Source: a virus (lineage: Duplodnaviria > Heunggongvirae > Uroviricota > Caudoviricetes). Taken from it: a stretch of DNA of 5,911 nucleotides. This document shows positions 3,001 through 5,911 of the stretch, piece by piece. Made by a program: the position numbers. Each line of letters opens with the position of its first letter. Position 1 is the stretch's first letter. The stretch is from the IMG/VR virus record IMGVR_UViG_2778261515_000003, positions 1 through 5,911 of that record, one strand, 5' to 3'.

Positions 3001-5911
3001 GCTCTGAAGGGAGTCAGAAGAGATGGTTTAAATAAAAGAGCCACTTATTATGAACCCGAATTTTATGATGCAAGAGGTGTGTTAAAAGAAATAATAAAAT
3101 GATGCTATTGAAATGATGTGTTTATTATTTGATTTGTTGATTAACTTGTTAGCGTATATAAGAGGTTTTATGAAACGGAAAATAAAATATTCCTTAATTG
3201 CTCTTTCATTGTTATCTGGTACAAGTCATGCAGTGATGAGTGATTATGATAAGTACTTTAGTAATGTTCAGATAAATAATTTATCATATGGAGTTTACAC
3301 ATCCGGGGGTAAGGAAAGTCAGTTTTTTTGTATTGGTATAAAGCGTGATAATGTGACTCTTCCCATTCACAATATGTGTAAGGTGGATGTCTTTGGATCT
3401 CATAAACAAGGTTTCGATGCCATGATGGAAATGGCTAAGTATTATTATGCTACTGGTGAAAGTATAAGGGTCTATTATAAGGAGAATGTGTGGAGTGATT
3501 CCGAGTTTAAAAAGGCCTTCTCTACTAACGAACTAATTTCTTTAAGCACATGTAGTTCATCTGATTATTGTATGGGACCACAAAAAGATACTTAATCACA
3601 TAATTTTATAACTTGGTATAAACTCCCATCACGCTGATTTTGAGAGGTATTTATGTCTGAACCCTTATCCGGTTCCGGTACGGCAGCGGCGCTCGGCGGG
3701 GCGACGGTATTCGGGCTGTTTACCGGAACGGATTTCGGGATTGTGTTTGGTGCGTTCGCCGGGGCGTTATTTGTGGCAACGATGCCGCAGGCGCTTTCAG
3801 CCTGGCGGGTGGCGGCGCATTTTCTGGTGTCGTTCATTGTCGGCGTGCTGGGAGCGCGTGTGCTGTCTGCCTGGATAGCGGCAAAAACAGGTTATGACGG
3901 CACATCGGCAGATGCGCTGTGTGCGGTGCTGGTATCCGTGGTGTCGGTGAAGATTCTGTCGTTCATCCACCAGCAGGATATCGCATCACTGGTGTCCGGC
4001 TTGTTCTCCCGCCTGCGGGGTGGAGGAGGCGGCAATGTTAAGTAACCTTCCCGGATTGCTGAATGTGGCGTTATGCACGGTTATCGTGCTGACGCTCTTT
4101 TTTTATCGTCGCTGTGATTCCAGACATAAACCGCTGATGTCATGGCTGGCCTGGCTGCTGATGCTGCTTTATGCCTTTGCGCCACTCAGCTATCTGTGTG
4201 GTCGTCCGTTAGCGGCGAACTGGCTGGCGGTGGGGCTTAATCTGCTGTTCTGCGTGCTGGTGATTCGTGCTCGTGGGAACGTTTCAAAAATCCTTTCATT
4301 ACGGAGGTGAGTATGTCGGGTAAATTCAGATTCAGCCGTCGGAGCGAGAAAAATCTGGAGGGCGTAAAACCACAGCTGGTTGCTGTCGTTCGCCGTGCGC
4401 TGGAGCTGACGGAGGTTGATTTCGGTATTACGGAAGGTCTGCGCACGAAAGAGCGCCAGAAACAACTGGTTGCAGAAGGCAAGAGCCAGACCATGAACAG
4501 CCGCCACCTGACCGGTGATGCGGTGGATGTTGTTGCCTGGGTTGGCAGCCAGGTGTCATGGGACTGGCCTCTGTACGAGAAAATAGCGCAGGCATTTAAG
4601 CAGGCTGCCGCAGAGCTGGGAACTGCCATCGAATGGGGCGGGGACTGGAAAACACTGAAAGACGGGCCTCACTTTCAGTTGAAACGCTGATAACCAGGTG
4701 TGTTATGAGCAGAAAACACTGGACACACAGAATGCCGCGAACAACGGCGAAATGGGCACTGGTAGCGATACTAGTGCCTTTTTTCTTGGTGGGATGCGTC
4801 AGCATGGATAAGGCGCGCCAGCTTTTCGATATGGCTTCTCAGGTCTGCGAAATTGTCGACGGTGTTCGGCAGTGTCTGCAGAACTGAACGACGGTGAGAG
4901 CAGAATATTTTTTAGCGGAGCGAAGTTCTATGCCATCACAAATCCCCCGCGCATGCCGTAAGCGTGGCTGCGCAGGCAAAACAACAGACATCTCTGGCTA
5001 CTGCGATAAACATCGTGGTGAAGGCTGGGTACAGCATCAACGCGGACTAAGTCGCCACCAGCGTGGCTATGGCACGAAATGGGATGCCATACGTGCGCGC
5101 ATACTGAAGCGTGATAATCATCTGTGTCAGAACTGCCTGCGCGATGGGAGAGCCGTTGAAGCCAGAACTGTGGACCACATCATTCCGAAAGCTCATGGTG
5201 GCACGGATGCAGACAGTAATCTGCAGAGTCTGTGCTGGCCCTGCCATAAAGCAAAAACAGCGCGCGAACGCATTAATTGATAACAGTTCCCATCTGTAGG
5301 GGAGGGGCGGGTCAAATCTCTGCAACCCTGGCAGCTCAGTACCGCCGCCTGACCCTTCCTCACATCGCCGCAGGTTCGAAAACTTTTTTTGGAAATGTGA
5401 ACAAACGATTGATAGGTAAGACCGATTATGTCAGGACCTCCGAAAACCCCGCCACGCCTGCATTTGATACGAGGCAACCCCTCAAAGCGCCCCGTTAAAG
5501 ACTCAAAAAAAACCGCTAAAAAGGATGAAAAAGGTCTCCCTAAAATTCCGCAGCATTTAGGGGCACAGGGGAAGTACTGGTTCAGGCGAATGGCGGAAGA
5601 GCTGAATGCGGAAGGGATCATTTCTCAGCTTGATGCGCGTGCACTCGAGTTGCTGGTGGAAGCCTATACCGAATATCGGCATCACTGCGAAACACTCGAT
5701 GTTGAGGGGTATACCTACCGCACGGAAACGCAGAGCGGTGATGTACTGATTAAGGCGCACCCCGCGGCGGCAATGAAAGCGGATGCCTGGAAGCGGATCC
5801 GGGCAATGCTTGCAGAGTTTGGTATGTCACCGGCAAGCCGGGCTAAAGTAAATATTGCCGGACCGGATGATGTTGATCCGCTGGCGGAGCTTTTAAAAGC
5901 GAGAGACTGAT

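Follow-up and report, generated by a model that had tools for sequence, protein, structure and literature searches.

A candidate outer-membrane lysis lipoprotein in the spanin slot of toxin-carrying Escherichia coli prophages related to phiP27

Introduction

In phage lambda, the slot after the endolysin is held by Rz/Rz1, in which the outer-membrane subunit (o-spanin), Rz1, is a small lipoprotein with periplasmic cysteine(s) and the inner-membrane subunit (i-spanin) is Rz. Previous work showed that lambda Rz1 is unstructured, with 10 prolines in 40 residues, and that gp11 of phage T1, a single-gene u-spanin, has a C-terminal transmembrane domain (TMD) in the inner membrane and a beta-rich periplasm-spanning domain (PMC6139136). 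Of 677 phages of Gram-negative hosts, 91, i.e., about 13-15%, had no recognisable spanin (Kongari et al., PMC6139136), and among alternative disruptors of the outer membrane a single one has been shown to be functional. In the spanin-less phage phiKT, the spanin is replaced by gp28, a 'disruptin', which the preprint describes as a small, cationic, amphipathic helical peptide (bioRxiv 10.1101/515445). Here we describe a gene for a 60-residue prolipoprotein that lies directly after the endolysin gene in a stretch of 5,911 nucleotides of Caudoviricetes DNA (IMG/VR record IMGVR_UViG_2778261515_000003, positions 1 to 5,911; hereafter the window). The window was 100% identical over its 5911 bases to a lambdoid prophage at the Rac site of the pig E. 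coli strain rl0044 (NZ_CP121356.1).

The closest phage was the Stx2e phage phiP27. It shares the lysis cassette (two holins, M15 endolysin) and has an open reading frame (ORF) at 20679-20858 whose product was 92% identical to the window protein. Kongari et al. (2018; BMC Bioinformatics 19:326; PMC6139136) listed PhiP27 as having a 'separated' two-component spanin, with both subunits in singleton families, an i-spanin at 20348-20542 and an o-spanin at 20706-20861. With 62 periplasmic residues (32 + 30), it was the shortest spanin of their set (PMC6139136). The gene itself is thus not new, since its family was already catalogued in 2018; what is corrected here is the assignment of its partner.

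Results

The lipoprotein gene

A sequence-only reading of the window, made before this analysis, had described a small lipoprotein with a 60-residue precursor, the lipobox LVGC, a mature part of about 30 residues and two further cysteines, and all of these were present. The ORF (Table 1) translates as MSRKHWTHRMPRTTAKWALVAILVPFFLVGC followed by VSMDKARQLFDMASQVCEIVDGVRQCLQN; residue 60 is the last, and the C-terminal sequence is ...VRQCLQN. A rule-based reading of the sequence was used for the lipoprotein signal and for Lol sorting. The precursor has a basic n-region and a hydrophobic core of 13-14 residues before the lipobox, in which G30 and C31 were invariant in homologs. Residue +2 was Val in the window protein and Val, Ala, Ser, Thr or Gly across the family, never Asp, and sorting to the outer membrane is predicted by the E. 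coli Lol rule (no Asp at +2). C48 and C57 were invariant in 11 aligned homologs; C48 and C57/58, which are at +17 and +26/27 counted from the lipidated Cys, were kept in every subtype. The signal peptide is the sole hydrophobic segment, and the earlier statement that a C-terminal TMD is lacking therefore stands, which excludes a u-spanin.

The gene begins 14 nucleotides after the endolysin stop codon, behind two holin genes, in agreement with the spanin position that had been proposed for it. The 14-nucleotide spacer contains a Shine-Dalgarno site, and sites of the GAGG type precede Met1 in the distant subtypes too. A search for Rz-like genes at relaxed length (six frames, at least 30 residues) likewise bore out the earlier observation, since no ORF with an N-terminal TMD and a periplasmic domain was found in, over or beside the gene.

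The window protein is a full-length member of PHROG 7528, a phage protein family without assigned function (60 of 60 positions matched, E 3.5e-36), which the distant subtypes, 38-66% identical, also matched (E ~3e-22). Homologs formed 111 clusters at 90% identity, nearly all from E. coli or Salmonella. Of 5426 complete E. coli genomes, 292 (~5%) contained family sequences, at 456 places in total. The ratio of nonsynonymous to synonymous differences per site (pN/pS) was 0.20 in the mature part and 0.24 overall among 76 unique coding sequences. The ORF at 4705-4887 is a real gene under purifying selection, far beyond a chance ORF.

Other readings of the same DNA were rejected. A start at Met10, as in the catalogue of 2018, is ruled out because residue 10 was M, V, I or T across homologs, and Met1 is taken as the start for the same reason. 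An upstream-extended form of 84 residues (ATG at 4633) overlaps the endolysin end in another frame and was cut off from the lipoprotein in every locus with an insert. A minus-strand ORF of 69 residues (4596-4805) with a hydrophobic stretch is the antisense shadow of the signal peptide. The gene was not annotated by the Prokaryotic Genome Annotation Pipeline (PGAP) in NZ_CP121356.1, NC_017641.1 and other complete genomes, and elsewhere it appeared as 'hypothetical protein'; gene callers also yielded the spurious 84-residue extended form and a truncated form of 51 residues.

The spanin slot among relatives

The samples from IMG/VR consisted of the best 80 hits per query, many of them closely related E. 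coli prophages, so that the counts are not phylogenetically independent. The same holin pair preceded the lipoprotein gene in all 80 loci, and the exact 14-nucleotide spacer of the window was the largest class (31 of the 74 loci with measurable spacing). The downstream neighbours differed among relatives, being HNH plus the small terminase subunit gene (TerS), a gene of 115 codons or unrelated genes. In the loci of distant subtypes, gathered with one distant protein as query, the gene was 0-6 nucleotides after the endolysin or overlapped it. The holins there were a pair or a single holin of 115-118 residues, and the endolysins belonged to three families (M15, 175 residues and 182-188 residues); no Rz-like gene was found in these loci. 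The lipoprotein gene travels with the lysis genes and not with the downstream module.

Prophages of pig enterotoxigenic E. coli (ETEC) were identical to the window up to base 4686 and diverged exactly at the endolysin end. These sister prophages carry an antirepressor, a 44-residue ORF and a canonical Rz (152 residues) with an embedded proline-rich Rz1. With the 3-TMD holin as anchor and 2 kb or more of sequence downstream required, 151 unique loci were available for a count of co-occurrence. The lipoprotein without Rz was present in 140, Rz/Rz1 without the lipoprotein in three and both in one; seven had neither, most of these being visibly rearranged by insertion sequence elements, deletions or a toxin insert. 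In the only one of these 151 loci with both (L137), the lipoprotein copy had no n-region and a GTG start. Similarly, in phage GER2, which carries Rz/Rz1, the lipoprotein copy had three in-frame stops. The lipoprotein alternates with Rz/Rz1 in the spanin slot, and the two are nearly mutually exclusive.

In the two loci with both Rz/Rz1 and a degraded lipoprotein copy, a moron gene for an Ais-like phosphatase of lipopolysaccharide core heptose(II)-phosphate was located between them (L137, 4709-5326, minus strand; L165, 2823-3437, minus strand).

A crude consensus scan found no sigma-70-like promoter site in 3500-5500 of the window, and the GC content of the lipoprotein gene matched that of its neighbours, both of which point to co-transcription with the late lysis genes.

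The published partner in phiP27

The published o-spanin of phiP27 (20706-20861) is the present lipoprotein family read from Met10. The published i-spanin (3694-3888 in our copy of the locus, L001) is a 64-residue ORF with a TTG start and without a predicted coiled coil. It lies in a 488-nucleotide insert between the endolysin and the lipoprotein, which the window does not have and which was present in 3 of the 74 IMG/VR loci with measurable spacing. The minus strand of this insert encodes a protein of 90 residues with a full-length match to phrog_36812 (E 5e-20), and the TTG ORF, antisense to it, had no family match. The published i-spanin is probably a mis-call because the insert is rare, the ORF is antisense to the phrog_36812 gene and no family was matched. 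Moreover, a scan of the complete phiP27 sequence and of 46 kb surrounding the window for proteins in which 25 or more residues follow an N-terminal TMD detected nothing Rz-like. Judged from these sequences, it is most likely that the entire lipoprotein family is 'orphan', and not the window copy alone.

Small membrane ORFs and holins as possible partners

In many relatives, a TMD ORF of 57 residues (PHROG 4493/1115) stops 1 nucleotide before the lipoprotein ATG, and other small TMD ORFs upstream were a 60-residue relative of it and a 44-residue ORF (PHROG 4906). Examples are located at L002 3963-4136, L004 9486-9620 and L165 2130-2282. These ORFs follow the endolysin and precede either the lipoprotein or Rz/Rz1, often with their stop 1 nucleotide before the next start, and their TMD is C-terminal with nothing after it. 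They also occur upstream of ordinary Rz/Rz1 in the ETEC4067 sister prophage (L004) and in phage GER2, and they were missing from the largest locus class and from all distant subtypes. For these reasons, i.e., their absence from the largest class, their C-terminal TMD only and their occurrence before Rz/Rz1, they are unlikely to be specific partners, and they may themselves act as further lysis factors. The holins are ruled out as specific partners by the occurrence of the lipoprotein with at least three unrelated holin sets.

Predicted product and family searches

AlphaFold2 with the family alignment gave one helix over residues 12-59, with a mean predicted local distance difference test score (pLDDT) of 70. 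The mature peptide had a hydrophobic moment of ~0.55 over 18 residues, and in one heptad register 88% of its a/d positions were hydrophobic. Proline was absent from the mature peptide of the window copy and occurred at most once in any family member; the net charge was -1, with a family range of -4 to +3. The mature part is thus predicted to be a single amphipathic helix with a heptad hydrophobic seam, and its modelled physical properties would fit a membrane-active or coiled-coil helix.

Searches with the lipoprotein against Pfam (E <= 1), NCBIfam, PADLOC and PDB sequences gave no match, and PHROG 7528 alone was matched. A kinship with Rz1, for which the sequence-only reading had suggested a homology search, received no backing from sequence similarity to lambda Rz1 in Pfam or PHROG. 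A hidden Markov model (HMM) search of 1.84 billion representative proteins returned 22 hits, which were the small enterobacterial family, including the subtypes that are 38-66% identical, or matches to the signal peptide only, and none of them connected the family with Rz1, Lpp, entericidin or colicin lysis proteins. No experimental work on the lipoprotein family or on phiP27 lysis was found in the literature.

Conserved codons of the signal peptide

Synonymous sites were saturated between subtypes, with a pS of 0.80 in codons 2-16 (4708-4752) and 0.82 in the mature part. The n-region motif RKHWTHRxPR was nevertheless kept between subtypes, with a pN of 0.23 in codons 2-16, which shows selection on the signal peptide at the protein level. 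Compared with subtype B, the signal peptide was more conserved than the mature part (~84% versus ~38% identity).

A different pattern was found in codons 17-31, where pS was 0.29 compared with about 0.8 on both flanks and the DNA was nearly invariant across subtypes. This segment contains a terminator-like RNA hairpin (Table 1) with a folding energy of -27.5 kcal/mol and a z-score of -4.6. Changes in the stem were pairing-compatible transitions, and the loop varied; a rare ATA Ile codon in the stem was kept. The hairpin could be a terminator subject to Q readthrough, a stabiliser of the mRNA 3' end or a means of dosage control.

At the run of six or seven T at 4779-4785, database sequences show frameshift variants (L098, P0105 and P0094), of which P0105 and L098 look like errors or decay. 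A -1 frameshift at this run was considered and rejected: T TTT TT(C/A) is in frame, but the hairpin is upstream of it and not downstream, and the shifted frame stops after 9 codons.

Discussion

Among the features of an o-spanin, the lipobox, the sorting signal, the cysteines and the location were all found, and a cognate i-spanin gene was not. The lipoprotein is best described as working in the spanin slot and catalogued as an o-spanin, with no demonstrable partner; it is not a verified two-component spanin. The explanation that we favour, to which we give about an even chance of being correct, is that it is a late outer-membrane lipoprotein and the third component of the cassette, and that it would open the outer membrane during lysis with no dedicated phage-encoded partner in the inner membrane. 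The 14-nucleotide spacer, the Shine-Dalgarno site and the absence of a promoter suggest that the gene would be expressed, at the level of both transcription and translation, together with the endolysin gene as part of the late operon under Q control. The lipobox and the Val at +2 predict export by Sec, lipidation of Cys31, cleavage by signal peptidase II and Lol sorting to the outer membrane (inner leaflet). The two periplasmic cysteines may be oxidised, either as a C48-C57 loop or in intermolecular bonds, considering their invariance and the analogy with spanins. The amphipathic heptad helix would be inert while the peptidoglycan is in place because its 29 residues are too short to cross an intact periplasm. 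Once the holin has been triggered and the wall degraded by the M15 endolysin, turgor would press the inner membrane onto the outer one, and the lipid-anchored helix might then destabilise the outer membrane or fuse both, with release of the virions and of the co-expressed AB5 toxin. The decay of the lipoprotein copies where Rz/Rz1 is present (L137 and GER2) was taken as support for this explanation.

Several points weigh against it. All the functional statements rest on gene position and on the alternation with Rz/Rz1, and a mature lipoprotein of 30 residues is unlike any outer-membrane disruptor shown to work. Two loci hold both Rz/Rz1 and a lipoprotein copy, so that co-occurrence is not forbidden, and redundancy cannot be established from only two decayed copies. 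The locus counts come from related E. coli prophages that are not independent, and the promoter scan was a crude consensus search. The small upstream TMD ORFs of relatives could be partners that were lost from the source prophage. Furthermore, this prophage is defective as it stands because its large terminase subunit gene (TerL) is interrupted, and the arrangement in the window could therefore be non-functional, although the fact that the tight 14-nucleotide arrangement was the commonest in IMG/VR contigs speaks against this.

The sequence-only reading had offered a minimal o-spanin using an unrecognised partner. The o-spanin part of that idea matches Kongari et al. (2018), but a dedicated linked partner is disfavoured by the comparative data. 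A true two-component o-spanin, with an inner-membrane partner that could be a lost small TMD protein (the 57-, 60- or 44-residue types, sm57/sm60/sm44), a holin, a host protein or its own uncleaved precursor, is consistent with the listing of PhiP27 as a separated two-component spanin and with the invariance here of the periplasmic cysteines, a hallmark of spanin subunits (PMC6139136). It is also consistent with the heptad pattern, which suggests helix-helix pairing, with the conservation of the n-region at the protein level far above that of usual signal peptides and with the small TMD ORF that ends 1 nucleotide before the lipoprotein ATG in at least 25 of 74 relatives. However, the published partner ORF, antisense to the phrog_36812 gene and without a family match, was confined to 3 of 74 loci; the small TMD ORFs are missing from the largest class and all distant subtypes, precede ordinary Rz/Rz1 as well (L004 and GER2) and, with their C-terminal TMD, offer no periplasmic domain. 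The lipoprotein moreover occurs with three or more unrelated holin sets, and the whole phiP27 genome has no Rz-like ORF. A two-component system is thus considered unlikely, although it keeps an appreciable chance. A further possibility is a one-gene spanin, in which a fraction of the precursor would persist as a signal-anchored form in the inner membrane, or a stable signal peptide would remain there, and the processed form would be in the outer membrane. The forms would pair through the heptad helix and the two cysteines and link or fuse the membranes after loss of the wall, with the hairpin and U-run perhaps tuning the amount of full-length product. This reading was motivated by the conservation of the signal peptide at the protein level and has a slim chance of being correct.

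Roles outside the spanin mechanism were considered as well. The earlier suggestion of exclusion or serum resistance, here widened to a moron-type accessory lipoprotein that would serve outside lysis, for example in superinfection exclusion, serum resistance or another envelope modification, and would sit, like lambda bor, at the lysis/packaging junction, fared worse than the o-spanin idea. Morons classically occur at this junction, in two loci the gene follows a complete Rz/Rz1 and is next to the minus-strand Ais-like moron, and seven of the 151 cassette loci had neither the lipoprotein nor Rz/Rz1. On the other hand, most of those seven are visibly rearranged, and the copies beside Rz/Rz1 are degraded. 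The gene shares the strand of the endolysin gene and follows it by at most 14 nucleotides (with a Shine-Dalgarno site in the window) or overlaps it, lacks a promoter-like site in 3500-5500, has the GC content of its neighbours and keeps to the lysis genes even where the downstream modules differ, in near mutual exclusion with Rz/Rz1. It matched neither Bor nor Cor nor any Pfam, NCBIfam or PADLOC family, nor did it qualify as Llp, and a moron is regarded as improbable. The protein could also act like a bacteriocin-release (colicin lysis) protein, which, perhaps along with its stable signal peptide, activates outer-membrane phospholipase A or makes the envelope leaky in another way, so that the timing of lysis would be tuned or toxin release promoted rather than the membranes fused as by a spanin. 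The size class is shared (a mature part of 30 residues from a precursor of ~50-60). The signal peptide of bacteriocin-release proteins is stable and adds to toxicity, and here the signal peptide is unusually conserved. The cassette is directly downstream of the AB5 toxin genes, and the outer-membrane passage of Stx2e after holin action was reported as unexplained in pig E. coli that produce Shiga toxin (STEC) (PMC12571312). Nevertheless, neither Pfam Lysis_col nor any other Pfam family was matched, even at E <= 1, and with the holins and the endolysin present a full lysis pathway needs only the outer-membrane step. The lipoprotein has extra cysteines and a predicted helix, and we know of no colicin lysis protein with extra cysteines or a predicted helix. 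A role of this kind is quite improbable.

In comparison with known systems, the protein resembles lambda Rz1 and other o-spanins as a small outer-membrane lipoprotein encoded after the endolysin, with periplasmic cysteines, in a slot held by Rz/Rz1 in the sister prophages. It differs in the lack of an i-spanin gene that is embedded, overlapping or adjacent, and its mature part is predicted to be helical without proline, unlike the proline-rich, unstructured Rz1. As in T1 gp11, there is one gene in the lysis cassette with an N-terminal lipoprotein signal and no second spanin gene; however, with 30 mature residues it has neither the C-terminal TMD nor the beta-rich domain of gp11. The phiKT disruptin is likewise a small amphipathic helical peptide in the place of a spanin, whereas the window protein has a lipobox, a charge of -1 and conserved cysteines instead of a cationic character. 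To our knowledge, phiKT gp28 has no lipoprotein signal. Colicin lysis proteins are also very small envelope-compromising lipoproteins with a similar mature length, but no homology was found, they belong to colicin operons and not to phage lysis cassettes, and the window protein has extra cysteines and the heptad helix. Braun's lipoprotein Lpp is an outer-membrane lipoprotein whose mature part is a heptad-patterned helix, as is predicted here. The window protein is half as long as Lpp, did not match Pfam LPP, lacks a C-terminal Lys for attachment to peptidoglycan, and is phage-encoded and predicted to be late. The 'separated o-spanin' of phiP27 is of the same family in the same cassette and differs by its published i-spanin, borne on the insert, and by the Met10 start.

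If the favoured explanation were true, a lipid-anchored helix of 30 residues acting alone would be a third, minimal solution for the outer-membrane step. The family is attached to toxin-converting prophages, namely the Stx2e phage phiP27, an Stx2k phage and the prophage of pig ETEC with the pertussis-like AB5 toxin (seen in the window). A study of pig STEC in 2025 reported that deletion of a 130-residue holin abolished fluoroquinolone-induced Stx2e release, and stated that the route of Stx2e across the outer membrane was unknown (PMC12571312). We equated that holin with the homolog of holin 1 of the window by gene name, length and primer sequence, and the lipoprotein gene is the obvious candidate for the outer-membrane passage of Stx2e. 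Based on the results of this study, the published spanin assignment of phiP27 is corrected, and an annotation gap has become apparent, in that PGAP often skips the lipoprotein gene.

Other features of the window

The coordinates of all features are collected in Table 1. The A subunit of the AB5 toxin matched the Pertussis_S1 and Scabin-like ADP-ribosyltransferase families, and the B subunit was related to the pertussis S2/S3 and subtilase-type B subunits. The pair is located in the classic toxin-moron slot, which is filled by stx2e in phiP27 and by stx2k in phiSTEC1575.

Table 1. Position and assignment of the features in the window (length in amino acids where given)
Feature	Position	Strand	Length	Assignment and remarks
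DUF1367, DUF1364 and DUF1133 protein genes				First in the gene order, before the AB5 toxin pair
Pertussis-like AB5 toxin pair	2377-3102 and 3113/3170-3595	+		Slot between the Q-like gene and the holins
Holin 1	3653-4045	+	130	Multi-TMD; Pfam Phage_holin_8 (E 4e-23); phrog_198 holin
Holin 2	4035-4310	+	91	Three TMD; overlaps holin 1; Phage_holin_3_7 (E 5.5e-21); phrog_217; coordinates taken from PGAP
M15 metallopeptidase endolysin	4313-4690	+		Peptidase_M15_4 (E 3e-12); phrog_465 endolysin (E 1e-75); without TMD or signal sequence
Shine-Dalgarno AGGTG	4696-4700	+		4 nucleotides 5' of the ATG; read from the sequence
Prolipoprotein gene	4705-4887	+	60	Stop codon included; ATG start at 4705, TGA stop at 4885-4887; phrog_7528; ORF listing
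Signal peptide	4705-4794	+	30	Residues 1-30; long basic n-region SRKHWTHRMPRTTAK, then the h-region
Terminator-like RNA hairpin	4754-4789	+		11-bp stem, 4-nucleotide loop GCGA, then the U6/T-run; terminator scan
Lipobox L28-V29-G30-C31	4786-4797	+		Cys31 predicted lipidated residue; fits [LVI][ASTVI][GAS]C
Mature lipoprotein	4795-4884	+	30	C48 codon 4846-4848; C57 codon 4873-4875
HNH endonuclease	4930-5280			Right of the lipoprotein gene
P27-family small terminase	5428-5910			Last gene of the window

The isrK family of Hfq-binding small RNAs was weakly matched at 58-139 on the plus strand, upstream of the DUF1367 gene (27 bits compared with a gathering threshold of 50; E 0.007). The TerL gene that begins at the end of the window is interrupted by an element of ~15 kb (host genome locus L003, 25910-43115). 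Its cargo comprises an integrase, regulators, a DUF927 primase-like gene, a capsid, a protease, a portal and its own TerS/TerL, and judging by this gene content it resembles a capsid-forming satellite.

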